DNA of 64,000 bases from Yuukianura sp. NJ FZ-2021 (Eukaryota): positions 8,556,001 through 8,620,000 of the forward strand of contig CM102289.1 in NCBI GenBank assembly GCA_046563655.1. The letters are read 5' to 3'. The translations under genes and the position numbers were made by a program. A model generated the notes under the pieces. It ran no database searches, had not been told where the DNA came from, and was given only the letters and a program-made list of their open reading frames with translations. Shown here in pieces: positions 4,784 to 63,790 of this stretch. Every line of letters begins with the position of its first letter. Positions within the stretch are counted from its first letter, which is position 1.

Positions 4784-6614
4784 ATGGCGTCTTGGACAAT
4801 TTCGGTGAAAATATTTGTTGTAATAATTTTATTAAAAGTTATTCAAAATAAAGTCTTTGCAGCAGATCCAACCGGTAAAGATTTTAGTTTAGATTTGTTT
4901 ACCTAAGAAGATTAATTAATTGTAATTTAAAATAATGATTACTATGATTACTTAGTTAATTGCAATGTAAAGTAAATGAGTTTTGGTATGTTAAAAGATC
5001 TGTCTCGACTGCGAGCTGATCTTCTAGCTGGATATGACAAAAACGCACGCCCAATTCTAAGCCACATGAATACTACTGTTGTTACTATCAATCCATATCT
5101 CAGGGGATTTGAATTTGTAAGAACTACAATACAATAAAAAAAACATAACCTAAACAAACATAGCCTAACATTTCAAAATTTGTTTTAGGATGAAATTCGC
5201 TCAATTTTTACTGTACACTGTTGGACCGTAATGGTAAGATTTGATCAAAAATGTGTATTTTTTCTTAAAAAAAAACGTTTTTTGCGATGTTTTTGAAAGT
5301 TTTGAAATTTTGTTCAAAATTTTTCGTTTTTATCAACAGACATGGACTGACGAACATTTAAAATGGGATCCAAAAAACTACGGCAACTTGACCAACATTC
5401 ACTTCGCGGCTAAGGAAATTTGGCAACCGGATCTTAGCGTCTACAACAAGTAAGAAGGAAATGTTTGTTTGGTGACAAAATTTTGAAAAATTTCCTTTTT
5501 CAATTCTTTTTTTCAAAATAGTTTTGACCAAAGTGAAGTTGATCATTTCAAAAACACGAGAGTGATAGGGCATAGCAATGGATATTTAATTTGGGTTCCT
5601 CCAACGAGATTCCAAGTTGGATGTGAAGAAGACCTGCGCAAATGGCCCTACGACACGCAAGTTTGTTCGGTAATTCTCGGCTCATGGGCTTACGATGGCA
5701 ATCAGCTTGATATAGCACTCCCTGTTAACCAGACTAAGGTACTTTTTAATACACCTTTTAAAAAAAATTGAAAACTAATTTTTTCAAAATTTTAGGTCAG
5801 CGGGTTTGAAATTATTCAAAACAGAGAGTTTGAACTTGTGTCAACTGAAATCAAAAAGAAAACATTATGGTACGGCGACGTGTCTTATCCAGACATTACC
5901 TTTACTATGACCCTGCGCAGACGGTCTGGAACACACACATGCGCAGTGGTAGTTCCAGCACTAGGTAAAATATGCACTGAAATTGTCCAATTTTTCAACA
6001 AATTCAGGCATTTTCAAAATTTTGAAACTGATTTTCAAAATTTGAAGCCATTTCCACTGCCATCTTGATTTCATTTTGGCTACGACCTGGAGCCTCTGAG
6101 CGCTTGGCTCTCATTCTCCTTGTCATCCTCATCAACGCCCTCTACCTCAACCGAGTTTACGTTCAAATTGTTACCCACGGAGACCGTGTTCCGTTAGTCC
6201 GTAAGTCTAAGTTGGAATTTTCAAAATTTTGAGCCAAATTTCGAATTTTGAAACAAAATGTTTCTTTCTTTCAAATTTTCAGTGTTGTTTTACCGGGATT
6301 CGCTGATTATGGTGTCGATCGCTCTGGTTTGGACAATCTGTTTGCGCTACTTGGCTGCAACCAAAAGAACTTCACCAGTTCCGTTGCCAGGATTTGTGGA
6401 AACTTTTTTGACGAGTTTTCCCGCCAAAATTTTGTGTCTTGACCCCCGACCTGCAGTGGGCGCTCAGACTTCGGACACTGACGACGAAGGGAAGCTTGTG
6501 AGCAGTGGGAATCCACATCAAGCTGACTGGGCGTGGCTGGCTCATCTGCTTGATCGAGTTGCTTTTATGCTCTATCTCATTGTGTACATCATCTTCTATG
6601 TCGCCATGTTGTAA
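4784..6614 (+). CDS. Divergent nicotinic acetylcholine receptor subunit (non-alpha), 8 exons
   Basis: Signal peptide; LLAGYDKNARP, WTDEHLKWDP, IWQPDLSVYN; Cys-loop CEEDLRKWPYDTQVC; GSWAYDG; four TM segments ending WAWLAHLLDRVAF. Loop C has no vicinal CC. Confidence 0.92.
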
Positions 6615-20025: not shown

Positions 20026-21710
20026 ATGATTGCTATTGAAATGAGGTCATTTCTACTAGTGTCACACGCACGTACTTTAGCTTCCACTGCCTTTTCACAG
20101 CCAGTTATTTATCGATTACCAAGGAAGTCAGCGCTGTTTTACTCAACTTCACCTTCTCATCCGGTTTCTCCCGTAGATGATAAAGAGGATCGGTCAATTT
20201 TTAATAGAATCAAATGGAAACAACTTCTGGAAGATGACACGGTAATTGAAAACATTAAACGACGCCAGGAAACCGCGAATGTGGATAAACTGCGTCAGAT
20301 GTGGCGACAGCTGAAAGATCAAGATCAAGTAAGAAACCTCGGTCCTTCTGATGGTCGTTCACAGTTGGAGGAGGCGCTGGTCACTGAAGCTCTACGATTT
20401 CCAAACGATACACATCAGGCCGCAATTGATTGTGGAGACAAGCCAAAACTACTACGCGTAATTGGCCAACCATGTCCGACAGCTAAACCAAAGGACTTTC
20501 AAGAGGTAAATGTAACAAATTACAAAAGTTCTTTGATTGTAACGTTATAGTGGCCTCAATACTGTTGTCTCTGGTTTTTCAGTTGTGCGAATCCAGAGGA
20601 TATCTGAAACGGACTAACTTAGGCGATCTTGTGGGGTCAAGACCTTACGTTTTGAAGGTGAACCGATTGATTTTACTTTTTATACATACTGTTATTCAAA
20701 CGTTCAACTCATCGAATTGACCTTCTTCTTGTGTTACTAAATAGGGCTATCTGGCGGAACTGGAGCAGGCACTTATAAATTATACAGTGGAGGCTCTGGA
20801 AAATGAAGGATTTGAGTTCATTTCTGTTCCAGATTTTCTGTCCCCGCATGTCATTGAATCATGTGGATTTCCAGTTAAATCGGAGAGAACGATGGTAAGA
20901 CAAGATTAGTCAGATTAGTAATTGCTCAAGTTAACTAACTACATTCGGCCAAAATGAAACTCTAATAATCCAACTAATTGTCAACAGGTTTATGAAATTG
21001 AGACAGAAGAAGGGGAGCAACCGTTTTACTTATCCGGTACTTCCGAAATGGGCATTGCGGGATACCTTGAAAATCGGACATTCGAAGCCACTGAACTTCC
21101 GTTGAAGTTGGCCGCAGTCAGCCGCTGTTTCAGAGCCGAGATTTCAACGATGGAAGAAGAACGAGGGATATTCCGAGTCCATAATTTTTCAAAGGTTGAG
21201 ATGTTTTGTGTCACTAAAGGCGAAGGAACTGCAAGTGAAGAACTTCACGACTATATTTGTGCCCTCGAAGAAAAACTTTTCACTGGGCTTGGCCTACATT
21301 ACCAAGTTATGGAAATGTCACCAAACGACCTTGGTTCTCCAGCTTATCGAAAGTTTGACATCGAAGCATGGATGCCCGGAAGAAAACAGTTTGGCGAAAT
21401 CTCAAGTTGTAGTAACTGCACTGACTATCAATCTCGTCGTCTCAACATTCGGTACAAAGATAGCCCTGAAGATGATCCTAAGTTTGTCCATACGCTAAAC
21501 GGAACAGCTTGTGCCATTCCCAGAATGCTGATTGCTGTCATCGAGTCATGCCAAACTGAACATGGGGATATGCTGTTGCCAGATGTACTTCAGAAGCACA
21601 TGCATTCAAAATGGATCGTCAATCCGCCCAAATCTCAGGCTCCCACGTTCCTCAAAAGTCGAGGTCACCAAGATAAGATCCTACTTCACTATGACCCCTG
21701 GAGAGAGTAA
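20026..21710 (+). CDS. SARS2: Mitochondrial seryl-tRNA synthetase, 4 exons
   Basis: Presequence-like N-terminus; class II motifs LSGTSEM, CFRAE, GIFRVHNFSKVE, KFDIEAWMPGR, EISSCSNCTDYQSRRL and HTLNGTACAIPR. Confidence 0.93.
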
Positions 21711-41480: not shown

Positions 41481-42883
41481 GTTTCTTGACGCTGATCAGC
41501 GATTCACAAGCGATTGTTGCTGCTTTCGATCACTTTCGAACGCTGATTCTAAGAAACTTCTACCTTAAGACTTTTCTACAACAAAAAGTACATGACAAGA
41601 CGGCAGTCTTTTCATAAGCTTCTTCCAGTAGCCTTTTCCAAGCAAGCAAGAAAAAAACTCCTATTTTTTGCAAAAAAAAAAACATTGCAAGTTGCAACTA
41701 ACACAAAATTGCAAACATTTCATAGGTTTGCCGGCCAACCAAATTCAGAGTCAAAACTGAAATTTTTTTGAGTCAAATTGAACTCATTTTTGAGATAATC
41801 TTGAATTTGCATTTGCAATTTCAATTTACAGTTACAACTTGCAACTTCTTGGTTACTAATTTTACTCAAATTAGTTAGACTAATGCTATCGTGATTCATT
41901 CCAAATGACGTTTTAGTAATATGCAAGTTGGGTGATTTTCAAAAAATAAACTCGGTAAAACTTTTTTTTCATTTTGTTTTTTGAAAATTACAGAGTCTTC
42001 ATACATTGTCCAATTTTTTGTGTCTAAATTGTTAATTTGTGTTAAAATTTTGAATTGGTAATTAATTTATGTTGATCATTATTTTCTCCTTTTTAGTTAA
42101 TTCCAAATAAAATCTATGTCGAGAAGAAGTTTAGCATAAAAATGTCAAAAGTTAAGATGTGATTAGTTTAGTCCAAAATGGACTGGTTTTGGGGCTTAAG
42201 GAAACCAGTGGGGCACTTCTTGACTTTTAGTTTCAGAAGATGAAGAAAAGATGTGGATGAAGCTGTTGTAGTCTTTTATGGTGAAACTGTAATGAAATCC
42301 ATGTAGGCGTTAGTTGGACTGTTGGATTTCTTTGTAAATGGAGAGGGTCAGACATCAGTTTGATTCTGAGGGAGTTGCAGAAAATAGGACTGGAAGGGAT
42401 CAGTTACAACTTCAATCTGGTACTGTTTTGGTTAAGTGCTCACTTCTGCTGGATCCCACAGTGACAAAAAGTGGTATCCATGACAGGTCAATAACTAAAT
42501 TTTGAGTGGGAACTTCAAAAAGGACGCCTACGACAATGCATTCTGCAATATTCAGCAGTGTTCTTTTCCTCACTTTCTTGGTGTCAGTGTGGAGCTTCTC
42601 ACTTGACCAGGGTAACATTTTTTTTTGAAAAAAAAAATTTAGTTTCAATAGAAAATGAAAAAGTTTGTTGTAGAATTTTTTTGTTTTCTCCCGGAAGAGC
42701 TTTTTTGTCCACTTTTATTAAAATTGGTTGAAAACATGAGAAATGTTAGAGAGAAAGCAGTTATGTGGTGACAGTAGGACAAAAAGTGCTATGCAGACAC
42801 AAACTTTCTCCCATAAATTTATTTGTCATTTTTTGTTTTCACTTTTGAGTTATGTTCACCAATTTTTCATGTCATTTTGTTAG

Positions 42884-45800
42884 ATGTCAATGCCCTCAAC
42901 TAAACAACACCACAAAAAGAAACGACATCGCGCATGCCCGAGTACAAGTACTTCAAATGGCAACGAACTCAGAAAATTTTGAAAATTGTTTGTGTATTAT
43001 GTTCCAGATTTGTCCAAGACACTTGAAAGAGCGATGGAAGATGACCGATTTGTTTTGGTTTTTGAAAATTTGCCGCCACGTCGACGTGGTCGTACTCCGG
43101 CTGACGCTTTGCTAACAATTGAATTTCCAGCATCCAAGCATCACATTGGTTTCGCTCTGGACAGAGTGAACCACCAAGGTTAGTCAACATTTTTTCAAAA
43201 ATATGAAATTGAAATTTTCGTAGTGTCAAATTAGTTTATGACCTTTCAAAAAACATTTTTCGAAACAGTAGCAAAACTTAAAGTCTTGTCTTACTGGACA
43301 ACAACAGAGCAGAGGATTCATGATTTACGATTTCTGGACAGAAAACAAATGGGCGTTGGCTCGCGGGGTGATAAAGAGGTTGGGCCATTTCTCGGGAAAA
43401 TTGTTGACAACTTCGGAAATTTATTACAAAGATTTCCAAAATTACTTCCATAAGTTTCAACTACGCTTAAGTTGTTTTTAAGTGTTTCGAAAAAGTATCA
43501 TGGCGAGACGTAATTATGCTTGAAGGCTTCATTCTCTCGTGTTGTCTCGATTTCTATATAAGGACACAAACAAAAGTTCAAGAACAAACCGATTTCAACT
43601 TTGTCTGCACAATCGAAGGGAATGAAAAATTTATAAAGTCCACTTTTCACCAATTATTGGAATATCGTGACCCATTTTCTCAAATTATACATTTGGGTTT
43701 CGCTTTTTCCAAATTCGATTTCTGGTCAATGAATCAATATTCGTCGGCAAATTTTGGCAATGACCTCTGACCTTAAATTTCTTCAGAATTTCTTAAATTT
43801 TTCTTAAAAATGTCTTAATTTTTTTCAAAGTTTTGATTGAGACGCTGGAAGACGGTGCTAAGAAGACACTGAACATTCCGGCGACATTTCTGACTGAAAC
43901 GTCGCTTCATACGTCGATGGTCGTCGAAGTGAACCAAGGTTGGAGCGGGACAGCTCGTCTTGCGCTGTTTCTGGACTGTTCTCCCCTTGGCCTGGTCACG
44001 CTCTCACAAAATCTGCGTGACCTCCTAATAAAATCCAAGATGCACCACCCCCTCAAAGTGGTAAGGTCAAAAGGTCACGCATCGTGAAACTTAAGGTTGT
44101 GCAAAATGAATGAATGAACTAAAAGACTTGTGTGTACTGCTATACTTGACAGTATTGACTTGATTTGTCAAAAGTACTTTTGCCCAATTTTGGAAGTTAA
44201 CAATGGGCATGGCCGTTGACCTTTCGTTTAAATTAATGCCAATATTGTTGAGCAAATTGATGTTTGTTTGAACAGAGTCGGGACAGACGCCTCAAAGTGA
44301 CTGTCCACCCGACGATTGATGCTCGAGAGGCTTTGGACGATCTGGAATGTCCGTCCAGGGCGGAACAGGCTGTCCAACCTCCAATTGTCAATGAAATTGC
44401 TACGTCATACCGCCGGGGTACTTTCACTGTTTAAATTTTTGAATTTCAAGACTATTTTTTAAAAAGAAGCACAATTTCGAATTTTATTTTACTGGTTATA
44501 GGGGATATTCCAATTATTTCGCCTGACATTGACGGTAAAACGAATTTTTTTAATCAGATTTTGAAAGAGAATAAGAAAAATTTCGAATTTCGTAATTTTG
44601 ATAATGGAATTTCAGAGTCGCAGCTGATTAAAGTAATTCAAGAACTCATCGCAGCTATCCGAATTCTTCGAATTGAAATTGAGGGACATGTGAGTTCTGA
44701 TTTTTTTTTTCTTGAAAAATTTTGAAAATGTGAAAACTGTTTTTCTTTAGAGGGAAGACACGCGAAGTCTACGACAGACTTTGGAAAATTGTGAAATGTG
44801 TAAACCTAAAGCGGGTAAAACGAAAATTACCAACTCCAAAATTAAAAAAAGTTGTTTTGAATTCCAAAATTTTTGTTTCAAAAAATAGAACCACTCAAAA
44901 CTGGATGTCGCGCTGAACCACCGCCATGTTTTCCTGGAGTCGTCTGTCGTGACATGCCTGACGGGACAGTTCGATGCGGTCAATGCCCCAGGGGTAATAC
45001 AAAAATTTTGTTGAAAAAGTTCATGAAAATTTCCAAAAAATTTTCAATGTTCATAAAAAACATAAAATTTTGGACCACAGGGTACATTGGAGATGGAAGA
45101 ATGTGTAAACCCGGGATTTCTTGTGCCGAAAGACCGTGTGCCGAAAGAGTCCAATGTTTCGACACTCCTGACGGATTTCAATGTGGCCAATGCAAGTTTT
45201 ACAAAATTTTAATTGTCAAGACTCGTTTTTTGAAAAAGTTGTCAAAATTTATGACAGGTCCTTCTGGTTACGAGGGCGATGGACAAAGATGTCAAAGAAG
45301 AAGGGCATGTGAATCAAATCCATGTTACACAGGTTTGACATTTTCCCTTTTCCTTACATGGTTCTTGTCACACATAAAATTTTGAAGTCCAAATTTTGGA
45401 CATCGAAATTTCAAAATTTTGTAATCGTAGGTGTACAGTGCATTGACACTGAAGATCCACCATACTACAGATGTGGAACATGCGTCGTCGGATTCACTGG
45501 AAATGGAACGCATTGTCACGACTTGGACGAGGTCAACTTAAAAAAAAATCAATTTTCATAATATTTCTTCAAAATTCTGAATCTGATCGTTCTGCTTTTT
45601 AGTGTGACCTCGCCGAACCTTGTGACCCGCGTGCTCGGTGCATAAACATGGCCCCGGGATTTCGTTGTGACCCATGTCCTGCTGGGTTAGTTTTGAAATT
45701 TTGAAAAAATTCACTTTTTTAAAACTTCTTTTTTTGAAATTTCAGGTTTACCGGGAGCACCGGACTTCAAGGTCAAGGTTTAGACTTTGCCAGACGGAAT

Positions 45801-48800
45801 CGTCAGCGCTGTTATGACATTGACGAGTGTGCGCAGGGCAATGGTGGATGTGTGGCCAATTCCCGTTGTGTGAATACAGAAGGCTCTTTTTACTGCGGAG
45901 AGTGTGACCGTGGATTTGCGGGGAATCAGAGCCTTGGATGTCATAATCGACCTGGAATGTGTCCCGATGGATCCTTCTGTGACGAAAATGCTGAGTGCAT
46001 TCGGCTAACAGGACTCAGCTACTATGTCTGCAAGGTAAATGTCAATGTCACTCCTAAAATATCTCCAACGCGTGCTTGTCCTACTGTCACTGTTTCGAAA
46101 AGTAGCGTTTCATGCCAAGGTTGATCGATATTGCTTCATTGCTTTTCCATAAAAGAACCAACACCCACTTAAATCTATTTTTGAATTTAAGCGTAAATTT
46201 AACTGAAATCGATAAATTTCGTCAGCTTTTTTCATCGGAAGAACGTCAATGGGGCATTAGCGCAATTAGAAATGGAAACGCTTAATTTTCTTTGACATTG
46301 CAGAAAAAACTTATGAAAAAGTATTAATTAATTAAATTAATTTTATATTAATTATTTTCAGTGCAAAGTAGGCTGGGCTGGAGATGGCAAAACGTGTGGG
46401 CCGGACAGGGACTTGGACGGCTGGCCTGACTATGATCTCAACTGCAGCGATCAGAAATGTCGTAAGGTGGGAACCATGTTTTATATTATGTAAAATATTA
46501 TATATTTTTATTATAATATTTTTATATTATTACATCATTTAATTATATTGCAGGATAACTGTATCTACACTCCGAACAGCGGACAAGAGGTAAAATCCTC
46601 AACCAAACATCACTGATTTTTTGTTAGTATTTTATTAAAAAATTTCTTGTAGGATGCGGACGGTGACGGAATTGGTGATAAATCATTATTCTAAATTATT
46701 CAAAATATTATTATTTTAATTAATAGTATTATTATAAAAATTTACACAAATGATTTGATTTTTAGGTGATGCTTGCGACAGTGATGCTGGAAAGTGACCG
46801 TATCCTACCATTTTTAGTGCAATTAATTTATGTCTTTTCTAATTTTTAAAATCATTTTTCTTCCAGACGGAGACGGAATTCCTAACACTCCGGTGAGAAA
46901 TGTTTAAAAAACTAATAAAATTTATGAATTTATAAATTATAATTATTATAATTTATATAATTTATAATTCCAGGACAATTGCCCTCTTGTTCACAATCCT
47001 TTGCAGGAGTTAAGTTTTATGAAATTTTAAAAAAATTGCTAAAAAGCCGAAAAATTTTAGTTTTTTCAATTTGCCATTTTTCATTTCCAGGATTCGGATC
47101 CGCATGGTGGAGACAAGCAGGGTGACGCATGTGACAATTGCCCTACTGTGCCAAATCTGGATCAGGTATGGCATTCGAATTAAATATAATTATATATTAA
47201 TATGCTATTATATTAATTATAATAATTTCAAATAGGAAGACACGGACAAGGACGGTTTAGGAGATAAATGCGACAGTGACATAGATGATGATGGGATTTT
47301 GAATGAGCGGGACAACTGCCCTAAAATCCCGAACGTTGATCAGCGTGACAGCGATAGAGACGGACTTGGTGACGCGTACTGTACAAATTTGGAATTTTGC
47401 ATTGTAATTTGCAAATTTGTAAGAATTAAATTGCAAATTTTTGTGTAGGTGTGACAATTGCCCTCGCGTTCCAAATCCATTGCAAGAAGACTCCGATCGT
47501 GATTTAGTCGGTGACGCCTGCGACAGTAATATTGACAAAGACAGGTTTTCAAGAAATTTTATGAAAACTCAATAAGTCATGAAAAACTGAAATATTTGTC
47601 AAAATTTAACCGAAATCGGTTATTTCAGGGATGGAATCCAAGATAACGTTGACAATTGCCCGGATGTCCCAAACTCTGACCAAATTGACACTGACAATGA
47701 TGGCCAAGGAGATGCGTGTGACCCAGACAAAGGTTCCTGCAAAAAAATAATAATTCAATTTCAAAAATTTTATAAATTTTATGTTATAAATTTTTTACAG
47801 ACAATGACAGAATCCCCAACGCGCGGGACAATTGTGAACTCATTTATAATCCGGACCAAATGGACACCGATGGCGATGGAAGAGGAGACGCGTACGATAT
47901 AAATTATTACACATAATTAAATTTACATAATTAATATAATTTATAATATATTTAATTTAGGTGTCAGACTGACACTGACGGTGATTCCTATCCTGATTTC
48001 CTGGATAACTGTCCTAACAACTCAAAAATCTTTACAACTGATTTCCGGTAATTCAGCATCGTTTTTTAAAATTCCGAGTAGAATTTTTCTACAATTTTAA
48101 AAATCTGTCGAATTTCTAAAATTGTAATGTAATGATTTTGTCCAGAACTTACCAAACAGTAGTTTTGGATCCTGAGGGAGAGTCGCAAATTGACCCCAAC
48201 TGGGTCATCTACAACAAGGGAGCTGAAATTGTGCAGACGATGAACTCTGACCCGGGACTTGCTGTTGGTGCGTTTTCAAAAAAAAAAAGTTTCTAAAACT
48301 TCTAAAAAAATAGAAACACTTTTTGAAAAAAAAAACTTCTTCTTTTTTTTCGTTTCAAGGGTTCCACCGCTTCGGAGGGGTTGATTTTGAAGGAACTTTC
48401 TTCGTTGACACTGAACTGGACGATGACTATGTGGGCTTCATCTTTAGGTAATGCTGGAACTGCTGTCCTCTAAAAAATTTTGAAATTATGAAACTAAAAT
48501 TTTGAATTAGTTATCAAGACAATTCCCAATTCTACACGGTGATGTGGAAAAAGAATACTCAGACTTACTGGCAAGCTACGCCGTTCAGGGCTGTCGCTGA
48601 ACCTGGAATTCAGCTCAAACTTGTCCAGTCAAACACCGGTCCCGGAGAAATGCTGAGAAACTCCCTTTGGCATACTGGCGATACTGCCAGTCAGGCAAGT
48701 GAAGAAAAACAAATTGCCGGCGCATGCGCACTGCTTGAATAGAAATCTTCCCATTTTGCAGGTCAAACTTCTTTGGAAAGATCCACGGAATGTTGGTTGG

Positions 48801-49158
48801 AGAGAAAAAGTGGCTTATCGCTGGCTGTTGCTCCACCGACCAAAAATTGGACTCATTCGACTCCGAATTATTGAAGGAGAAAATGTCGTCGCAGATTCTG
48901 GAAATATTTTTGACAGCACTCTGAAAGGTGGACGGCTTGGTGTCTTCTGTTTCTCACAAGAAATGATCATTTGGTCCGACTTGGTATATCGCTGCAATGG
49001 TAAACAAAATCAATTAAGTTTACACATTAATTGACTTGATTTAAAATTTGGTGTTTCATACCATTGTAGATCATGTGCCGGAGGCAATATACCGAGAGCT
49101 GCCTAGAAATCTGCAGAGGGAAGTAGAAATCGATAGAACAAAGCCACCAGCTCCATGA
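42884..49158 (+). CDS. Tsp: Thrombospondin (pentameric arthropod type), about 29 exons
   Basis: N-terminal domain, coiled coil ending CEMC, EGF repeats, type 3 repeats (DNCP..NPxQxDxDxDGxGDACD) and a C-terminal domain ([45 protein letters not shown]). The 5' end is uncertain. Confidence 0.95.
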
Positions 49159-49539
49159 AATTGAACAAAGAGTAGAATGGATAGTACTAAAATTTAATCA
49201 CTGCCAAAGTGCCATAACACAAACTAACCTAAATAATTGACAGTTTAAGATATTTCTTACTTGTTTACCATTTGATGACAATTAATTGTTGCAATTCAAA
49301 GCTAACCAAATAATTCATTCAAATTGAGTAAATATACAAAAGTATAAAGGAAAATTATAGTGCACCGACTCGAACCAAGCTTTCTTTTCCTAATAATTTA
49401 TAATCCTACCTACAACTTAAATGATTCCACTTTGATTAATTCCTATGTCCTAAGTAATTTCGGCATCGACATTAGAGAAATAGATCTGGTAAGGCCACGG
49501 TGCTGACATTTTTAGGTTGATCTTTGAAAACTGACTGAA

Positions 49540-49966
49540 TTACTTGGCTGTATTACTGTCGGAATCGGGCAGAGGACGGCGAAAAAGAAGAATGTGTGGC
49601 TCTGAAACAGAAAAAAAAAACGAATTTCAAAATTCAGTGAATCCTCTGAAATCCAGCAGTATCCAATGCCTTGATTGGCAAAGTCGAACACCAGTTCAAA
49701 TATAAACTCACCTGGTTCGTGAAGCATGTAATGAATCCAACCCTGACTTTGCTGAACCCCAATACTTCTCCATTCGGTTTCCGACATCAGTTTATGACGT
49801 GGAACTACCTTAGCTAGTTCCTTCGGTAGAACTACATGGCTGTGAGAAAAATTAAATATTTTTTAGGTTTGGTTACTTACTTCACGATAGGAAAAATCAA
49901 CACTCACCGATATTCAAATTCGTTGTCAGTGTATTTGCCGGAGTAGTAAATATCTTTTACCGACAT
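49540..49966 (-). CDS. CKS1: Cyclin-dependent kinase regulatory subunit, 3 exons
   Basis: [73 protein letters not shown]. Confidence 0.95.
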
Positions 49967-50589
49967 CTTGGGTGGGGGCAGTTCTATCGATATCCCTTTC
50001 GTTTGAGGCAGTAGTAAATCTTGAAATAAACAATACATGTAATACTGGAATTTGGAATAAACAATCATTGAAGGAAGTGGAAGAAGTTTTGCTACCTTAA
50101 TCTGTGAACGTAAAGCGGAGCGAGAAATCACGGAATGTTCCTTTCAGTCTTCAGTTTTACAAAAATTAATCGTTCAACACGGAAAGAAAGTGACCTGACT
50201 TCGATGATGATGACGACAAAGACAGGAAATGATAAACCGACAAAACAACAATAGAAAGTGAAGTGGATGGGATCGAATGGCAATTGCAAAGTTGCAAAAG
50301 CCGGGTGTAGCTTATTGCAAATGGTCAAACAATGTGTAACTTCACAATATCTAAATCTTAAAAGCCTGGTGAAATTTTTCCTTGTAACTTGATATGAATG
50401 TCAATTTCTTTGCCATCATATCAATTTAATTATAGTAGTAATAAGTCGCCCATTGCACAGTTTTTGTGGACTAATTTAACTAATTTAATCTTAATCAGTG
50501 CATACTCCGTCCGACTTCCCTTCACTTTTCCTCCCATCTCACCCCCACATGAACCATCGCAATTTACGACTTTCTCGCTGTGATTCTTG

Positions 50590-51924: not shown

Positions 51925-54389
51925 ATGCCTAGAGATCGAGATCATCGTGGAGCTACAGAAGAGGCTTCGAGAGAACGACATCGTGAAAGCGGAGCCCGAT
52001 ATGAAAAAGATGACAGAAGTAATCGCATAGAGAGAGAAGACAAACGAACATCTACTAAGAGACGTTATTCTGACGACGCAGAATCATCAAGACGGCGACG
52101 GTCCACGTCTAAATCAGGGCGGGATAGAAAAGAAAAAAAGTCAAAAAAGTCCAAGAAATCTAAACGACGACATCGGTCATCTTCATCTTCGTCAAATTCT
52201 TCTACTGATTCATTCCAGCTACTACTACGATTAGAAGAGGAACGTAAACGAAAAGCAGAAGAAGAAAAAAAGCGAAAGGAAGTTATGAAAGCACTGGAAA
52301 CTCCCGAAGAGAAGCGAATTCGTAGGCTTGCCAAGAAGGAGGACAAGGAAAGGCGACGGAAAGAAAGAATGGGATGGGACAACGAGTATTTGCATTACAC
52401 AAATACTGACAATCCATTCGGGGACCACAGTCTGCTGGACACATTTATGTGGAAAAAGAAATTGGAGAAGGATGGCATGGCTGACATTTCACATGAACAG
52501 GTTGAGAGAATCAATCGTCTAAAGCAAGAGGAAAACAAACGGGAGCTTGAAAAGGTGAAGAAACGACGTCTGGAACATGAACGTGAACGACAAACTCGTG
52601 AAGAAGAAGAAAGTTTAATTCAAAGGCAGAAAGAAGCTGCACAATTCAAAGAATGGGGAATGCAAGAGGACATTTTTCACTTGGAACAAGCAGCGCTACG
52701 TTCTAAAATTCGCATCAAGGACGGGAGAGGTAAGTTTTATAACAGTTTCTATAAGCGATTTGCATCTTTGATCTTCTGCTATAGAGAACGTAAATTATAC
52801 TCCAATTTGTGTTGCAGCTAAACCTATCGATTTGCTTGCCCAGTACATCAGTAACGAAGATGAAGTTGACGCAGTTGAGATGCACGAGCCGTATACATAT
52901 CTAAATGGGTTAACGATTAATGACTTGGAAGACTTGCTTGAAGATATTAAGGTAAGCTAAGCATTTAGAAATCGAAAGAAGAAGATTTGTGTCGATAAGA
53001 GATAACTGTTCGGTTGGTTATAGGTTTATGAGCAAGTTCAACATGGAAAAAATCTGAGTTACTGGAACGACATCACTGTCATTGTGGAAGATGAACTTCG
53101 GAAACTACGAAAATTGGAACAAGATGACGATTACCGCGTGGCCTTAGAACGACGAGAAGGAATCAATCCCTCAGTTGCCCAAGATGTCGCAGCAGTGTTC
53201 AAGGGAAAGACTGCCGAGCAACTGCAAGCCCTCAAAGCCCAAATTCAATCAAAACTGGACGGGTCAACATCGGGCGTTGACATTTCCTACTGGGAGTCAC
53301 TTTTATCACAACTGAAAGCCCACATCGCTCGAGCCCAGCTAAGAGATCGTCATCAGGAAAACTTACGTCGAAAGTTGGAGCTACTGAAAGCCGAACAAGG
53401 AGTGGAGGAGGAGGAGCGAAATGCAGTTTCATCCGAAGCGAGGAGTCCACAACCCGGAACGTCGTCATCTGTAAAACCAGATCCAGATTCTACTGCAATC
53501 GACGCGAAGGAAGATGAAAAGTCTCAAGATTCTGTTCCTACTGAAGAGTCTGAAAGAGAAGAAGATGAGGAGGAAGATGACATTGTTGACGAATGTCTTT
53601 GCAAGTACCTTCAAGGAAACTACAGTCCAGTCCTTATCACGCAAGATGAAATTGAGCCAGGAATTTTTGTTATTGGGGAAGATGAGGACAATGTTCGATT
53701 GGATTTGGCACGGCGGCAAGTTTTGAATGCAGGTGCAAAAGTGGAGAACGTTTGGACGGCAGAGGAGAAGGCACTTCAGCAGGAAGCTAAAAAGGGAATG
53801 ACCAATGATGAAGCTACTTTCTCCGTGGAGACGCCGTTGGAGCAAATCTATCTTTGGTCAGACAAGTATCGACCAAGGAAACCTCGATATTTCAACAGGT
53901 AAGTTTAGATGAATCTTATGTAGCAGGCTTTTGATTTTATAACTAATTTTAAAATTTTACAGAGTTCATACCGGATTTGAGTGGAACAAGTACAACCAAA
54001 CCCATTACGATATGGACAATCCTCCGCCGAAGATCGTGCAAGGATACAAGTTCAACATTTTCTTTCCAGATATTATCGACAAGCATCTGACACCACAGTA
54101 TCATCTGGTACGTTTGTAAATTAACTAGCAATTTCGTTCTTTTACCGCCGCCGTTTTGTTGTTAATGCATGATTTAATAATGTGTTTGATTATATTTCAG
54201 ACCGCATGTGCAGATAACCCGGATTTTGCTATTCTGCGATTCCAAGCTGGTCCACCATATGAGGACATTGCCTTTAAAATCGTGAACAGGGAGTGGGAAT
54301 ACTCGTATAAGCGGGGCTTTCGATGTCAGTTCCAAAACAACATCTTCCAATTGTGGTTCCACTTCAAGCGATACAGATATCGAAGATAA
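51925..54389 (+). CDS. cactin: Cactin (spliceosome C* factor), 5 coding exons
   Basis: ETPEEKRIRRLAKK, YTNTDNPFGD, LRSKIRIKDGRAKPIDLL, WSDKYRPRKPRYFNR and AGPPYEDIAFKIVNREWEYS..LWFHFKRYRYRR. Confidence 0.97.
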
Positions 54390-54590: not shown

Positions 54591-55507
54591 TTATACTGGA
54601 GTAGTGGTATCCAGTTTCAGGTTAAATTCTTCGTGGATGTAACGATTACGATCACCAGAAGTGTCTACTAGGATGAGACGAAGACTGTCTTTTGCTTTCA
54701 AACTCTCCGCGGAATTTAGCAAGAAGGCATAGAAATGGCGCCCTTCAACTCTTTCATAGAATTTACGACACTCTTCGGCTGCCAAGTGACGACTTCCAGG
54801 TTTACTCCCATCAAATGCTGTTAATTCAAATTGGATTTTGAAAATTCGAAATTGAAATTTTGAAAAATGGAAGTCATGGGCTTACCGTGCAATGTGGCTG
54901 GAATTCCTTGTATTGGTAGAGAACAGTAAGTCTTGCGCAGTTTGAAAAAGTTTTCTATCGGCGCATGGTAAAAGGCACCGTTGTCAACTAATCTACAGGT
55001 AAACGATTGGAGATCTTTCTTAAACGGCTTCACTATTTCACATCTGTAAGGAATTAACTGTGCATTTATATTTAACTTTATTTAAATTAGTTAAGCTTAA
55101 TTAACTAACCTTAGCCATTTCTTTGGTTTATCTTCAGAGACGTACTTCACTGCATAGAATCCGCCCAACTCTAGTTCGTCAAGATGGCGGCCGCCTTTTT
55201 CATAAGCGTCATACCACTCCGTCATTCCCATTTCTAAATCCTCAAGGCATTTTGAAGTACGGTAATCAGTCACCTGTAAGTTCAAATTCAGTTGTTCTGT
55301 TAAAAATTTTGAAACTGAATTGTAGAATTTTGTTCAAATTTTTCATAATTTTGTTTATCATTTTACATGAAAGTTCCACGGTGAAACAGCATTTCGTATT
55401 ACAACGCTCATTTCTACCGGTGAAGAGTCCTTAAACGTATAAACCGGATTCATGCGCAGTGGCTCCAAAGGACTCACAAAGTCCATCTCCATTGTGCTTC
55501 TGCGCAT
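54591..55507 (-). CDS. Small protein consisting of one extended Tudor domain, 4 exons
   Basis: AVSPWNFHV, helix, GGFYAVKY, KWLRCEI, LVDNG, LRKTYCSLPIQGIPATL and LILVDTS..YIHEEF follow the eTudor (Tudor-SN) layout. Confidence 0.8.
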
Positions 55508-56334
55508 ACGGTAACGCGTAAATTTTAAGTTTTACACTCAACAGAATTACAGAATCGCAAAAAGTTAGAAATGAATAACACTTTTTTTAAATTTTACGCA
55601 AGTTTACGTACCTGTTTGGTAAGATTGAAAATACTTTTGCAGGTATCGATATTTTTGTAACTTAATGTTACAAAATTGTTGAATTTGCACAATGCTAAAC
55701 TTGTTACAGTGTTTGTGCAATGAAAACTGGTGTTTTGTGGTGTATCACATAACCTATTTCCCTCATGTTTTCACTATCCTCTGCTTCTTGTCAATCTGCT
55801 TATTGCTAAAACAGATTAAATTATAGCACTTTTTTTGCCAACATTCCTTCCGCTATACCCCTCTGCAGATTGTGCATCTTTTTGCAAATTCAGAGGCTCT
55901 TGTTGTTGTAAGTTGCTCATGCTGAAACACACTTTTTAGCACCGTCCATAACTCATCTTCTCACCTGTAAAAACATTTTGTAGCCACAAGCATCAGGCAG
56001 CATCCCCATCGCATTATTACAAGTATGGTATACTAACTTCTTTGAGGTGGGCAGTAATCTCTTTCATCATGAACTTCATTTTGTTCAGGGAATTGGTTCT
56101 GGTTGATGAAATTTGCAACTTTATACAATCTTTGCAAAATTTATACCTTCCCTACTTGAAAAATGTCTGTTTCAAAATACTTCATCAGAATTGTATCGCA
56201 AACATTGTTCTACATATGCTGATACTTGATTTGGCAACTTAGTTTTTATTGAGCTTTGTGGTTTTGTTACTCTTTAGTTTGTAATAAATTTTAGTTCTTA
56301 TAATTTTTTGTTATAATAATTTTAATAATTGAGG

Positions 56335-59300
56335 TCATGACCCCTCCCAGTCCTTGAGAATTATGTCACTGCCAACTTCTCCGACCATAATAGCCGGAAT
56401 ATTTGTATTGGCATTGGGGATTACCGGCATTATACTTGCATCTACTACTCGTAAACCCGTAGTTTTTAGTACTCTGCAACACAAGAGTAAAGTTTTTGAA
56501 AAATTTTAGTTCTTAAATTTTTCAATTTTGAAAACTTTTTTCAAAACTACCTTAGTTTTGAGTCTACAACTGCTCTAGGATCTTCCGGCCCTCTGCCCAT
56601 GGCTGCTGTTCCAACAGGATGGTAAATTCTAATGCCAAATTTTTAAAGTTTCGAAATTTTTAAAACTAGTTTGGAATTAAAAAAAAAATTTACAATTTTT
56701 TTTTAAATTTTACGTCATAGTTATATGGCGAAGGTAGCATTCGTAGTAAGCATCGCTTTTGAATGGCACTGACTCACATCCAGGAAACGGTTTCACCAGA
56801 CGAGCATTTAAACGTCTGTACGTCGTCGTATTTTCAAACATGTCCACCAGTATTCTAATACCTGAAAAGTACACAGTACTACTGGTTGACTTTCATTTTA
56901 CAAATTAATTTGAAAATCTGAAATTTTGAAAAATTTTGTCAAAAAGCTAAAATTTTGCACTTGCCTTCTACAGATGCTTTCATGTCATCCGGATGCTGGA
57001 AGTAGTTTGGTTGCATAATTGGTGGATCGTTGGGATTTTGACTAGCAAGTTTAACATATCCTATGGATTTAGGACGCTGAAGTGAAACGCCTATAAAGTT
57101 AGCGTCTTTTTCCAGCCCCGTTTCTTCATTAAGGTCTTCCTTAAAATACTTGTGCAGTAGATCTGCCTTGATATTGTAAATGTGCTGCAGCATTTCCGGC
57201 ATTCCGCGAATCACACCCAGCGGAAGCATTGTGTACTGGACATCGGGCCAACTATGATCATAGTTTCTTACGGCAGTAGAAACGTACCCAACAGCACCCT
57301 GCGCAGTAGATACCAACACGCCTGCGCAGAACCCGAAAATTATCAAATTTATTTTTGATAAGTTTTTAGGTTGCTTTAAATTTTTACCTTCCCGATTCAC
57401 AACAAAGTTGACAGCCGAACTGATCTTAACTGTGCGTTTGAGTAGGATTGACTCCTCAGCATCCAATCGAATTGGACCTAACAATGTTAGCATATGATCC
57501 TGCAGATTTTGGCCAACAGGCAGGTCAACCAAATTTCGAATCTGAAAATTCAAAAAAAAAAAAAAGCAGGCAATAATTTAAAATTCTCAAATAAAATAAA
57601 AACAAGGCAGGGCGATGCTCAATGGTTGAGCATAGGTCTTCTGGAGGGAGTTGGCAATTGATAAGGTTTTTACACCGGCTGTCCGCAAACGCAAGAAAAA
57701 CGTTAAGAAACTGTTTTCACGAGATTTATGCAACGAAACGTGGCTCATAATTTTCAGTGGAGATATGGGGCCTTTTTGTGCACAATTGCACCAAAATGCG
57801 AAAAAACCGTTTGCATAAAAATGTTGTTCAAGGTTAGCTCAGATTTCACTCTGTTCAAATTTTTTAAAAAGTTAAAAATTTACTATAATAAGTATTCTAT
57901 TTACCTTGATGAAAATCACTCTTTTTAAATAACATAATTCCAAATTCCAAAAAGTTAAAAGTTTAGTAGGAAAATCACTCTTTCTAATCAACTAAATTCC
58001 AAATTCCAAAAAGTTAAAAGTTTAGTAGGAAAATCACTCTTTCTAATCAACTAAATTCTAAATTCCAAAAAGTTAAAAGTTTAGTAGGAAAATCACTCTT
58101 TCTAATCAACTAAATTCGAAATTCCAAAAAGTTAAAAGTTTAGTAGGAAAGTCACTCTTTCTAATCAACTAAATTCGAAATTCCAAAAAGTTAAAAGTTT
58201 AGTAGGAAAATCACTCTTTCTAATCAACTAAATTCGAAATTCCAAAAAGTTAAAAGTTTAGTAGGAAAGTCACTCTTTCTAATCAACTAAATTCCAAATT
58301 CCAAAAAGTTAAAAGTTTAGTAGGAAAATCACTCTTTCTAATCAACTAAATTCCAAATTCCAAAAAGTTGAAAGTTTAGTGCGAAAATCACTCTTTCTAA
58401 TCAACTAAATTCCAAATTCCGAAAAGTTCAAAGTTTAGTAGGAAAATCACTCTTTCTAATCAACTAAATTCCAAAAAGTTAAAAGTTTAGTAGGAAAATC
58501 ATTTTTTTTAATCAACATAATTCCAAATTTCAAAAAGTTAAAAATTTAGTAGGAAAATCACTCTTTTTAATCAACATAATTCCAAATTTCAAAAAGTTAA
58601 AAATTTAGTAGGAAAATCACTCTTTTTAAATAACACAATTCCAGTGTATTGCAAAGTGTATTTTCAGAATCTACAAAGAATTTCATAAATTCGAAAATAT
58701 TAATATTAATATAACAACGTCCATTACCGAACGTCAAAATAACTGCACAATTCGACATTTGTGCATCTTACTTATAAGTGTGCAGAAAATTGAACGTTGA
58801 GTGGCAGGGGTCGAATATAGCTTTTTTAAAATCAAAATCGGTTCAAATATTACATGCAGCATGTGTTAAATCAAGTGCATAAGTAATAGAGTCGAATATC
58901 GCTTGCTAAAGTCTGAATTCTATAAAATTTCTTGCAGAAAAAGGCAAATTTGAACCCTGGCATGCACTGTTTACATGTTACCAATTTAAGCCGGATTTTC
59001 TACCCTCTAATCAGTCTTAATTTAAGAACGTAACTAAACATACTGCCAGAAAATTACCAGATCAAAACTCCGTTGTTTATAAATACGTTGAGTGCAATCG
59101 AAACCAAAACTGTTTTGCGGAGCCACGATACTGCGGGTACGTAAAGTAGCCCGCCAACTTTTGCGTTGTTAATTTAACACTTTGAGTGCAATGTATACCT
59201 AGTGAAAACACTTAAGCCGTAGATAACTCCCCGACTGCGACGGGGCTTACGTTTCAGGGGAAAGGGTCCTAAAAAACGTTACGGACGGACAGACAGACAG

Positions 59301-61198
59301 ACAAAGTCGTATCAATAGTCTTCTTCAGCATGTCGTAGACATGCGTCTCTAGAAGACTAAAATTGAAAAAAATTCTTTGTGAATTTACTCACCCCGACAG
59401 ATTTCAAATGCTCCCGAGGGCCAATTCCAGACAACATTAAAATTTTTGGTGTATCGAGAGCGCCTGCGCTGAGAATTACTTCTTTTGTGGCTTTAACAAA
59501 TCGACGTCTACCATGACGCATAAAAGTGACGCCATAAGCACGTCTATTTTCATCTAAGTGAACCTGATTTAAAAAAAATCCATTAAAAACATGTTTTAAC
59601 GCAACTTTCATCTTGATTTTTGCAAATCTTTAGAAAAATGTATTTAAAAATTTTGTTTTAAGGCAATTTTCATTTTGATTTTTAGCAAAATTTTCAAAAA
59701 ATGTGCCGTTTTCATTGGCTTACTTTGATTCCGCGTGAGTAACGATAGATAGTGAGATTTGTACGACTGAGGATTGGTTTAATGTAGCCTTGGTAAGTAC
59801 CCCATCGGAGTCCATTTTTCATTGTCACAACATTGGTGGAAAATCCTGAAAGAGTAAAATATAAAATTTCATAAGATATCAAACATGTTTGACAACTTTG
59901 AAATTTCAGCAGTCAAGGTGCAATATGGTCATAACGTTTCAAAATCTATGCAATTACAGGAAGAACCTAAACTAATTTGTAATTCAAAATGCATCAACAT
60001 TATTTTTTTTTTTGGAAAATGAAGAAATTGTGAATTTTTATAAATTGATTATAAGTTAAACTTTTTGTTACCACTTGTCTGCTGTGCTGATGAATCTTTG
60101 ATGGGGTAGCCCTTCTCCTTTGCTGCATTGAGGAAATACTTTTCCATGTAATTTTGTTTTACTGTTTCCACATGAATTGGACCGCCACGCCCATGAAATT
60201 CAGCTGAAATTGGCAATTCCAGTCATAATTATTCAATAATTAATGAAAACAAATTACTGGAATTTTTTTTCTAAAACTTAGATATTTTTTGCTTTTTTAG
60301 AGAAAATTAAATTTTTCTACCGCTTGGAAAAGCGCCTTCATAATCCTCCAACTTTTTGAAATATGGCAACACGTTTTTCCATTTCCAGCGCGGATCTCCA
60401 GTAATGTTGGCCCAGTTGTCATAGTCTTTGGGATTCCCGCGCTGGTAAATCATGGCATTCAAATTGCTTGACCCGCCCAAACCAACTCCACGCGGCCAAA
60501 ACACTCTCTGGAAATAAACATAAGCATAATTTAAACCTTGACCTTGCATTAATTCATAACCAAAACTGGCTTCTTTTGAGTGCGAGGTCAAAGGTCAAAC
60601 CTGATTATGTAGTGCAAGTGCTGCATTATGTTGTGGTTCTGTTTCATAAAGAAGGTCAGTGCTGGGGGCCCTTTGAAGCAAATAGAAACTTATCCCTAAT
60701 CGTGAAATTGGATTCGGATCGCCTCCGAGTTCCAGCAAAAGAACTTTGTGTTTCAACGAAAGTCGATTTGCCACTACACAACCGGCTGAACCACCTCCAA
60801 CTACAAAAACAAAAACAAAATTTAAAACCGGATCCAAAATATGAAAATTTTGACGACGTCAAATGTCTGCGTACCAACTCAAATAATAATTGTCCAGACG
60901 AGTGTTTTTTTCAATTTTAATAAAGTTTTAGGGATTTTTTGTTTGAATATTTACAAATTTCGAAATTTCCTGTACGGAAAAAGTTATGCACAATTGTTTT
61001 CATACCAATAACAAAATCGAATTCTTCCGGTACGCGTGGATTCTGCATTCTCCAGGCGGCTGACTGTATAAAATCGGCGCTCTGCATAACTCCAGCGTAG
61101 AATGTAAGCCAGAATGGAATTGTGAGTACAAATGGAATGGCAAGATGTGCTAGTGTAGGATATGGAACGTCAAACATTGGACCCTGTGCTAAATCCAT
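56335..61198 (-). CDS. GMC oxidoreductase (glucose dehydrogenase-like), about 11 exons
   Basis: [81 protein letters not shown] and ANTNIP. Confidence 0.95.
57602..59358 (-). mobile_element. DINE-1/HINE-type non-autonomous Helentron (~1.76 kb) in a GMC intron
   Basis: On the minus strand: 5' subTIR GTCTTCTAGAG within a hairpin, (GTCT)n GTCC microsatellite, central tandem array, 3' subTIR CTCCAGAAGAC, stem-loop ATGCTCAA-CCA-TTGAGCAT, and an end CTTGT. T runs flank both sides. Confidence 0.8.
57911..58643. repeat. 59-bp minisatellite, about 12.5 copies
   Basis: Unit GAAAATCACTCTTTCTAATCAACTAAATTCCAAATTCCAAAAAGTTAAAAGTTTAGTAG; one copy has a 7-bp deletion. Confidence 0.97.
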
Positions 61199-62383
61199 TT
61201 TGAAATTTTAAGAACACAAATAAAAAGCTACAGGACTGTAAAGCAACTAATTCACTACTGAAAGCTCCTTTGCAATTTTTGGTGTGAAAACCACTGTGGG
61301 GGTCACTAACAACCAATTCTTGATTTCTCAAGGACAAACTACAGAGTTTACTAAAGACAAAAGCCAACTTATTCCAATTAACCAAATTTTAGTAAACTAG
61401 TTTTTTGGTCAACAATTCTCAGGAAATTTTAATTTTGTTAGATTCGATGCCCAATGGCTGCTGGAATAGTTAGGAAGCCAATTAAATTTTAGGGTTTTTA
61501 CGGTATTTAGGAAAAACCATAATTTTGCTTTCGTTTGTATGCACATATTGCTAGGCATTTTTGACAATAAACAGCACAAATCTTCGAAAAACGGCAAAAT
61601 AATTCATACTTTTGGTGGATTTTGGTTGGTCACGTGTCTAGCCAAGGGCTACGTGCAAAGTGGAAAGTTATAGTAAGAGTTTTACGACAGAAACTATGGG
61701 AAGACCTTGGGCAATTTGATTTTGACTTTAAAATTTATAACCTACAGTAGAGAAGAATAAAAATGAACTTTGTTAACCCAAATTTCCTTAAAATTCCCAC
61801 GCTCTGTTTCAAAATTTCAACATTTTTTGGAGCAACTTGGCATGGCACACAGGAAGTATGAATTCATTGGCACGAACTTTGCTGTAGGTGTGCCCGTATC
61901 CAACTCTGGTTCAATTTTTTCAAGCCATTTCTACATTGAAAGATTTTCAAAAAAAAAGTTTTACAAAGAATTTTCAAAAAACTTTTACGACCGTTTTTTG
62001 ACGTTCAAACAACGTCAATCCTTATTTTATTTTCTCTTAATTTTCTTATCAACGTCAATTGTGACTTGTTTGCTGATGTAATCCAGTCCGTGTGAACACT
62101 TATTTTTTCAAAACACTTTGCATCATATGCTAATTTGTGATAAAAAATATTGTGAAAATAACAAACATGAAGCAAGTGCGTCATTATTCCAATTTTTCTT
62201 TGTTTAATTGCCCAAAACTGGTCAACTTTCTTTCTACTTTCTCCAGTTTTAAACTCCTCCAGCCGAACACACTTTTCCTCCGTTAAATTTGAAACAAACG
62301 TTTCATAATTTCAAAATTTCTAGACTTTCATTGTTCCAAAATCCCAATTTTTTAAAAACTTCGTTTTTTAAAAAACTGACTTT

Positions 62384-63790
62384 ATGGAGAAAACGACACT
62401 TGAGCATTGCCTTCCGGTATTAACTTTACACCGACTTTGTGGAATTCTTCCACTGAAACTTATCCGTGGCGATTCTGATGAATCGGACGTGGGAAAAACA
62501 AGGGATGGACAAAAATTTGAAAAAGTCGCAGTAGCTGATGGGAAAAAATACTTCATTTTATCAGTCATTGCCTTTACATATTTGACTCTTCGTTTCTCCG
62601 CTATTATATTTGCGTTTCTTCCGAAATATTTGGGCGGAAGATTTCATACTGTTGAGATCATTTGCTTATGCTACGCAATCTCCTATGCCACTAGCACTTT
62701 TGTATTCTACTTCGTCTTTCGCATGAAAATTACCAAAGTTGTTAAATTTCTTAACAATTGGCATCAGTTGGAACTCGAAGTAATGAAATCAGATCCAGGT
62801 TGAAATCAAGCAAAAAAAAACTTGTTTTTTTTAAATATTTATATCAAATTTTGAATTATATATTTATATTAATTTTTTATATTAGATATCAGTTTGTCTT
62901 CAACTGGACTAAGTATGGCTCGCCGCTTACGCGTGATGGGTTTGCTGACTTCGCTAATACCAATTTCCGTTTTTGTACTAAAATCGGGCGGACTGGTGGA
63001 AGTGACCCATTCGTTCTGGATTTTTGATTTTCAAAATTTGGCGCCATCTTATGCCTCTACCATCATTTACTTTTTGACATGTCTAGAATCATTTGTTTTT
63101 GTTGAATTGGTTTCGTTCAGACTAGGGATTTTTGATGTCACATTTTTGGCTTTTCTAACAAGCTTTATCAAAATTTTGGAATCGTTGATTAACCTTGCCC
63201 ATGACGTTGGACATAACAGTACTCAAATTGTCATAAATGAATACATAGAAGAGGCAGGACATGAGCAAAAATCAAAACCCGAATCTGCACAGAAGTCGAA
63301 ATCTAGACTTGAGTACTTGGTTTGTACTTATGGATTGATGCTTGACTTGGTAACGACTTTTAATAGTACTTTCTCAAGTGTTGTTTTTAGTTTTAACATT
63401 TCAGCCATGATCAACATGTGTAGTTCAGGGTACGCTTGTGCCAGATTTTGGCGAGGAGCAAGCGCCAATGTGCTGGCGTTTTACTTTTGTGCAATATGTA
63501 TTTCTGCAGCTCGGTTTTACACAATGGTACTAATGATGGGCAAAGTCCATAGGTTGTCTAATACGCTAAAACGGGTGTTGCAGCAACACGTTTTAGTGAA
63601 CACAAAAAGCGGGTTTCTTGAACAAGGAAATTTGCCGGGCTCGGATCAAAATCAGATTGAAGATTTTCTGCAATGTTTCATCCCGTTGCAATTCTGGGCT
63701 GGCAAATTTTATGCCATTTCGTCGTCAACTATCCTCACAATATTTTCTGTTGCAGTTACAAACACCATCATGCTTTTGCAAATGTTTTAA
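62384..63790 (+). CDS. Gustatory receptor (7TM chemoreceptor family), 2 exons
   Basis: RLCGILP near the N-terminus, multiple TM segments, and C-terminal AGKFYAISSSTILTIFSVAVTNTIMLLQMF resembling the GR TYhhhhhQF motif. Confidence 0.85.

Follow-up and report, generated by a model that had tools for sequence, protein, structure and literature searches.

Can an intron that begins with GA be a working intron of a conserved protein-coding gene? This question is raised by a stretch of 64,000 nucleotides (nt) from Yuukianura sp. NJ FZ-2021 (GenBank assembly GCA_046563655.1, contig CM102289.1, positions 8,556,001 to 8,620,000 of the forward strand), which is referred to here in its entirety as the window and whose own numbering is used throughout. 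The window harbors, on its forward strand (42536..49158), a thrombospondin/COMP-type gene with 30 coding exons, 29 introns and a predicted product of 1038 amino acids (aa). An initial annotation, made from the sequence alone, had proposed that intron 17 of this gene (46790..46866) is a GA-AG intron. On the basis of homology and of the TSP_3, TSP_C and EGF_CA domains, this is the best reading of the locus. It is almost certain that the GA...AG boundaries genuinely exist in the sequence and that the conserved protein depends on them. Intron 17 is also likely to be a short U2-type intron in which the GA donor would serve as a productive splice site in vivo.

Identity of the gene and boundaries of intron 17

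The exon table of the gene was established by direct sequence reading, after which the junction of intron 9 was revised using homologues and a spliced aligner. The coding sequence consists of 1038 codons; its length is divisible by 3, and it contains no internal stops and no frameshifts. Pfam searches with single exons retrieved TSP_C (7.7e-38 and 5e-26), TSP_3 (7e-14), and EGF_CA (3.7e-9), and the product contains, in this order, EGF-like repeats, type 3 calcium-binding repeats and the TSP C-terminal domain, as characteristic of the thrombospondin/COMP family. Full-length alignment to proteins named COMP was also obtained. With exon 29 (79 aa) as the query, 1162 proteins at an E value of ≤0.001 were found among 1178 candidates, and the named matches were arthropod "cartilage oligomeric matrix proteins" or thrombospondins. 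Among the 120 listed proteins, the closest were the COMP of Folsomia candida (P0008; 82.7% identity over 840 aa) and a protein of Allacma fusca (P0017; 82.3% identity over 834 aa), followed by proteins with approximately 65% identity. The two closest proteins belong to springtails, and the window thus stems from a springtail or a very near relative of springtails. The repeat region contains a run of micro-exons of 36, 22, 24, 26, and 36 nt.

Intron 17 is 77 nt long, interrupts the reading frame in phase 1 and lies between two of these micro-exons on the forward strand. Exon 17 (46766..46789; 24 nt) encodes G-D-A-C-D-S-D-A and the first base of an Asp codon, and exon 18 (46867..46892; 26 nt) provides the last two bases of this Asp, followed by G-D-G-I-P-N-T-P. 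Direct reading confirmed the sequence described in the initial annotation: exon 17 ends with GAC AGT GAT GCT G and is followed by GAAAGT (46790-46795), whereas the other side of the phase-1 junction consists of the acceptor TTCCAG at 46866 and of exon 18, which starts with AC GGA GAC GGA ATT CCT at 46867. The first two intron bases (46790-91) are GA and the last two (46865-66) are AG. The donor site CTG/GAAAGT (exon/intron; 46787..46795) is, as had been stated, equal to G/GTAAGT except at +2; it matches MAG/GTRAGT at 6/7 positions outside +1/+2 and contains a GT at +5/+6. At the other end of the intron, CATTTTTCTTCC followed by AG (46853..46866) forms a polypyrimidine tract and acceptor with 10/10 pyrimidines before the AG and 11/12 over 12 positions. 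A candidate branch site, TTCTAAT (46837..46843), was selected by eye and would place the branch A approximately 24 nt before the acceptor.

The encoded protein defines this junction. The type 3 repeat D-S-D-A-D-G-D-G arises only from the phase-1 junction 46789/46867, and no GT/GC-AG pair yields the conserved product at intron 17. In a MAFFT alignment, the Asp at the junction (split codon G/AC) was kept without any gap in 14/14 arthropod homologues. To place the introns we used a custom protein-to-genome spliced aligner with donor penalties of 6 for GT, 9 for GC and 16 for any other dinucleotide. Despite the 16-point penalty, the aligner picked 46790-46866 with the proteins of Folsomia and Allacma as well as with that of L015, a locus retrieved in a metagenome contig scan in which the open frame over exon 21 was used as the query and which resulted in 54 loci. 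With the Folsomia protein, the aligner returned introns 6-29 of the gene model, including 46790-46866. Furthermore, the joined exons 15-18 (108 nt) could be aligned without gaps to a single unbroken exon of L015 (85/108 nt and 33/36 aa identical). The differences between exon 17 and L015 were found mostly at third codon positions, indicating that exon 17 has retained a coding role.

Probable compensation of the GA donor

To compare this donor with those of other introns, we compiled all window introns whose junctions were fixed by homology. The resulting set contained 51 introns from six genes, namely, those encoding thrombospondin (29 introns), mitochondrial seryl-tRNA synthetase (3), cactin (4), CKS (2), a Cys-loop channel (6), and a GMC oxidoreductase (7). 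The homologues of the latter were only about 30% identical, and its introns were retained only where at least two of three alignments agreed, which left seven and excluded the others. The alignments of seryl-tRNA synthetase upstream of 20506 and the introns of the ion-channel gene outside 5117-6282 differed between queries and were excluded. The set included 46 GT-AG, 3 GC-AG, 1 GA-AG, and 1 TT-AG introns, and the TT-AG intron is intron 19 of the thrombospondin gene. Outside this gene, donors of the GA, GG or TT type were observed in 0/22 introns.

The non-GT donors shared a strong remainder of the splice signal. AAGT at +3 to +6 was present in 5/5 non-GT donors versus 3/46 GT donors (Fisher P = 2.4e-5; 51 introns), and in the thrombospondin gene alone this proportion was 4/4 versus 0/25. 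The four non-GT donors of this gene matched the consensus outside +1/+2 at 6, 6, 6, and 7 of 7 positions, whereas its 25 GT donors had a mean of 4.08/7 matches, with only 3 of them reaching 6. With 10/10 pyrimidines before the AG, the GA intron was the highest of the 51, the other 50 all being below 10. The TT intron had 9/10, a value that was reached by 4/49 of the remaining introns. The unusual strength of AAGT at +3 to +6, of the consensus match and of the pyrimidine tract argues for a compensated, working donor at intron 17 rather than an error.

According to the explanation that we favor, U1 and later U6 would pair with the otherwise perfect site G/GAAAGT, and the all-pyrimidine tract together with the short length of the intron would result in strong intron definition. 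Cleavage would occur at G+1 despite the A at +2, as it does at GA sites in vertebrates, where they are rare, and in Eurytemora, where they are common. In part of the transcripts, cleavage would probably take place at the GT in positions +5/+6 or at an exonic GT at 46781, giving rise to a frameshifted or shortened by-product. Intron 17 would probably have arisen after the split from the L015 lineage in a local burst of intron gain, and the same burst would have produced the TT-AG intron 220 nt downstream.

The initial annotation had further suggested that the spliceosome of this organism may tolerate deviations at +2 throughout the genome. The window does not support this suggestion, since there were only 1 GA, 0 GG, 1 TT, and 3 GC donors among its 51 introns. 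Such a genome-wide tolerance is possible. A modified spliceosome is, however, not required because the ordinary human spliceosome is reported to use GA and TT donors in otherwise strong sites (PMC6280755).

Sequencing contigs over the donor and alternative explanations

Of five sequencing runs listed, none was of RNA; four runs, in the form of assembled contigs, were aligned on the gene. Runs X1 to X3 represent one sample, whereas X5 belongs to a separate study and carries another organism label. Contig record 7 of X1, which is 246 nt long and has a depth of 191, is identical to the window over 46552-46797 (0 differences, 0 gaps), a segment that includes the GA donor, and passes 46791 without a branch. 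The mean bin depths in this region were 247-334, and the contig with GA thus represents the major haplotype of X1. The donor was also spanned by contigs of X2 (record 14) and X5 (record 26). The initial annotation had made its proposal dependent on the base at 46791. The A at this position is borne out by the X1 contig, but this agreement is of limited independence, as X1 may stem from the very sample (X1-X3) from which the assembly was made.

Over positions 42400-49300, runs X1-X3 showed 451 substitution sites and 99 indel sites in 6.9 kb. Most of the 40 listed substitution rows were intronic, and the contigs of these runs were fragmented into pieces of approximately 250 nt. The high diversity and the fragmentation suggest pooled individuals or very divergent haplotypes.

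Several observations weigh against a productive GA donor. Record 14 of X2 carries 4 differences, and record 26 of X5 (46617-46849) carries 2 differences and one extra base; in either haplotype, a T at or beside 46791 is possible. A canonical alternative donor is present in frame, namely, the GT at 46781. The exon before the GA donor ends with TG, whereas an AG at this place is obligate in the copepod Eurytemora affinis (PMC5714493). In human reporters, as described by Erkelenz et al. (2018, PMC6280755), a GA donor was weak and almost fully outcompeted by a weak GT site, and weak noncanonical sites could be cut at +5. A cut at +5 of the intron 17 donor would lead to a premature stop.

We considered three alternative explanations. 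According to the first, the donor would once have been a perfect G/GTAAGT, and the A at 46791 would reflect a recent mutation, a minor allele or a miscall of the assembly; this haplotype would then be mis-spliced, and normal function would be provided by others. This is consistent with a donor that is a single base off the consensus, with the very high polymorphism of the region and with the differences found in the X2 and X5 contigs. In contrast, the contig with GA was the main one in X1, where it had a depth of 191 compared to bin means of 247-334 and showed no branch. A perfect GTAAGT is rare (3/46 GT donors and 0/25 in this gene), so that an exceptional site would have been hit, in an intron whose pyrimidine tract is the best of 51, and intron 19 would call for a second hit of this kind. 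An error or a new mutation should only seldom affect a site as atypical as this, and here two such events within 220 nt would be required. Taken together, we consider this explanation unlikely.

The second alternative concerns the exonic GT at 46781..46782, located on the forward strand within the Ser codon AGT. The initial annotation had stated that the only nearby GT is in phase 2. Although the GT at 46794..46795, which corresponds to +5/+6 of the GA site, is indeed in phase 2, with its use shifting the frame and read-through meeting a TGA at 46795-97, the GT at 46781 is in phase 1 and in frame. As seen in an alignment restricted to canonical sites, it forms with the same acceptor a GT-AG intron of 86 nt (46781-46866), and if this were the real donor, the protein would be 3 residues shorter and GAAAGT would only aid U1 recruitment. 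The site is weak, but its sequence ACA/GTGATG is no weaker than the accepted donors TTG/GTGATA and CGC/GTACTG of the same gene. There is also a precedent, since an FGFR GA site is reported to depend on a GT located six nucleotides upstream (Frey and Pucker 2020, PMC7072748). However, the use of this GT would remove three conserved codons (x-D-A) and change the junction Asp, kept in 14/14 homologues and in L015, to Asn. In the nine exonic bases that this intron would absorb, D-A-D is still encoded, and all differences from L015 are synonymous. The canonical-only alignment scored 56-65 points lower for introns 17 and 19 together; it lost 3 residues at intron 17 and inserted nonsense sequence at intron 19. 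When frameshifts were permitted, canonical sites alone resulted in two forced frameshifts and a lower score, whereas the model of the repeat region remained unchanged when noncanonical donors were allowed. We consider a donor at 46781 distinctly improbable.

The third alternative is either the skipping of exon 17, with an in-frame splice from donor 46675 to acceptor 46866 and a loss of eight residues, or an inactive allele or decaying duplicate of the gene. Exons as short as 24 nt tend to be skipped when their donor is weak, the frame would be preserved because both the end of exon 16 and the start of exon 18 are in phase 1, and there is a second odd donor nearby, at intron 19. On the other hand, exon 17 shows coding-type conservation with respect to L015, its loss would eliminate one half of a calcium site as well as a conserved Cys, which are present in all 14 homologues, and a dead copy is at odds with 1038 codons without stop or frameshift. 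We consider this alternative very improbable.

Intron 19 and GC-AG introns of the gene

The second noncanonical donor of the gene belongs to intron 19 (47010..47090, forward strand), an intron of 81 nt in phase 0 with TT...AG boundaries (GAG/TTAAGT ... TTTCCAG/GAT). Because a single residue separates Q from D-x-D in the homologues and in L015, the end of exon 19 was placed at 47009 and the start of exon 20 at 47091. The same mRNA would result from a GT at 47009 combined with a CA at 47089. It is possible that a G is missing from the run at 47090-91. Two other junctions were rejected. As a GA-AG intron starting at 47007, intron 19 would drop a residue that is kept in 14/14 homologues and L015, which makes this reading less likely, and a GT at 47009 combined with the AG at 47090 was seen by direct reading to shift the frame.

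The remaining noncanonical introns were of the GC-AG type (3/51, 6%), and all three have the donor GCAAGT. Two are located in the thrombospondin gene on the forward strand, namely, intron 9 (45192..45257; AAT/GCAAGT) and intron 28 (48695..48761; CAG/GCAAGT), whereas the third is found on the reverse strand at 56862-56964. The orthologous intron of intron 9 in L015 has the donor T/GTAAGT. An AG-AG reading of intron 9 was discarded, since both the homologues and the aligner placed a GC-AG intron at 45192-45257.

A related locus and the age of intron 17

The spliced protein of L015 shares 85.6% identity with the window protein over 796 aa and is thus closer to the window gene than that of Folsomia; L015 was the closest relative found. 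Introns 2-14, 18, 22, 25, and 26 are common to both genes, at the same residues and in the same phases. L015 lacks introns 15, 16, 17, 19, 20, 21, 23, and 24 of the window gene (window positions 46590-47960; L015 positions 3267-4220). As a consequence, window exons 15-18 correspond to one L015 exon and exons 19-21a to another. The second joined block aligned with its L015 exon without gaps (113/151 nt and 46/50 aa identical), and the differences were mostly at third positions. All introns of L015 were GT-AG (19/19). One of them, at residue 641 and in phase 1, is absent from the window gene and common to the copepod-like locus L019.

None of the eight window-specific introns was found in the type 3 repeat region of L001, L019, L022, L023, and L024; L019 has an intron one codon away from the position of intron 19. 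Since intron 17 is one of the eight introns absent from L015, it is probably young. By parsimony, the eight introns probably represent gains in the lineage of the window; several independent losses in the lineage of L015 are possible. GA and TT donors occurred in 2/8 window-specific introns versus 0/43 others (P = 0.022). Two points count against this scenario. The preference of gain over loss relies on parsimony with few outgroups, and when only introns comparable with L015 were considered, GA and TT donors amounted to 2/8 versus 0/17 (P = 0.093), which makes the link weak. The complete scenario, namely, a burst that introduced eight new short introns into about 1.4 kb, with donors that break the GT at +2 (GA) and at +1 (TT) and still act as main productive sites, is tentative, and we regard it as doubtful.

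When the window was searched for signs that introners or repeats had given rise to the new introns, only short AT-rich matches and no clear target-site duplications were found, and such an origin was rejected. At intron 16 (46675-46770), which is window specific, GTGAT starts both the intron and the next exon; no other of the 29 introns of the gene has a boundary repeat as long as this 5-nt direct repeat. Introns 14, 16, 18, 20, 23, and 24 (46467-47960) have an A+T content of 85-90% with TAATTA-like low complexity, compared to 55-82% in the other introns of the gene. The similarity of these introns to one another, and to a few further AT-rich sites, is only weak.

Comparison with known noncanonical introns

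GA-AG introns are described by Frey and Pucker (2020, PMC7072748) as common only in Eurytemora and Oikopleura, and they account for approximately 0.006% of human introns (PMC5714493). In Eurytemora affinis, about 10-12% of donors are reported to be GA or GG (Robertson 2017, PMC5714493; PMC7072748), and these donors are located in introns specific to this copepod, against a background of "an explosion of intron gains" (PMC5714493). Intron 17 resembles these introns in several respects. It is a short intron of an arthropod with an A at +3 of the GA donor, it is lineage specific and located among many idiosyncratic new introns, and it is needed for a full-length conserved protein instead of being an alternative splice event. 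In accordance, introns 17 and 19 are both absent from L015, and none of the other loci compared had an intron at the place of intron 17. Unlike in Eurytemora, there was only 1 GA and no GG donor among the 51 introns, and the window intron is known from genomic sequence alone.

In human cells, GA and TT donors are reported to be used only when U1 complementarity and enhancers compensate, and donor dinucleotides rank in the order GC > TT > AT > GA > GG > CT (Erkelenz et al. 2018, PMC6280755). The human TT sites described in the same article (the natural sites of FBXO9 and ETV1 and the FANCC mutation c.165+1G>T) have the pattern ..G/TTAAGT and are cleaved either at +1 or, one base before it, at the GT that G-1 and T+1 constitute. 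The window sites are similar to human GA and TT sites in that they have a single mismatch, at +1 or +2, in an otherwise near-perfect U1-complementary site and a second GT at +5/+6. The pattern of the human TT sites is also seen in the donor of intron 19, gAG/TTAAGTtt, where cleavage one base further upstream would cause a frameshift. However, human GA and TT sites are, according to that report, mostly minor or alternative, enhancer dependent and often cut at neighboring positions (PMC6280755), whereas both window sites would have to be main sites of an essential matrix-protein gene. The logic of compensation is the same as in GC-AG introns, as illustrated by the GCAAGT donors of the window; GC-AG introns nevertheless differ in that they keep a pyrimidine at +2, which GA does not, and constitute an accepted minor class.

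A U12-type nature of intron 17 was considered and rejected, as the junction reads GAAAGT and lacks RTATCCTT at +1. A U12-like heptamer, GTATCCT, is present inside the intron at 46800-46806. This heptamer, which recalls U12-type introns, is located 10 nt past the junction and cannot be used in frame because the TGA at 46795-97 precedes it. A nearly complete loss of minor introns has been reported for springtails (PMC10639083).

Our literature search, limited to one collection of papers, found no report of GA-AG introns in Collembola or of noncanonical splicing in springtails. If the GA and TT donors are indeed constitutive, they would extend the association between noncanonical donors and young introns to a second lineage of arthropods, and the gene would offer a compact test case of how splice signals compensate for an unfavorable base at +1 or +2. 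Gene finders restricted to GT/GC-AG introns will break or shorten this thrombospondin gene.

Other genes in the window

An Rfam search of the window detected no RNA gene and hence no small nuclear RNA gene. Apart from the thrombospondin gene, the forward strand encodes a Cys-loop ligand-gated channel (5000-6600), a galectin (at 18 kb), mitochondrial seryl-tRNA synthetase (20040-21700), an alpha/beta hydrolase (28-31 kb), cactin (51926-54389), and a 7tm gustatory-type receptor (62873-63787). The reverse strand encodes Treslin (near 24 kb), a cyclin (at 39 kb), the cyclin-dependent kinase subunit CKS (49540-49967), and one or two GMC oxidoreductases (54700-61200).

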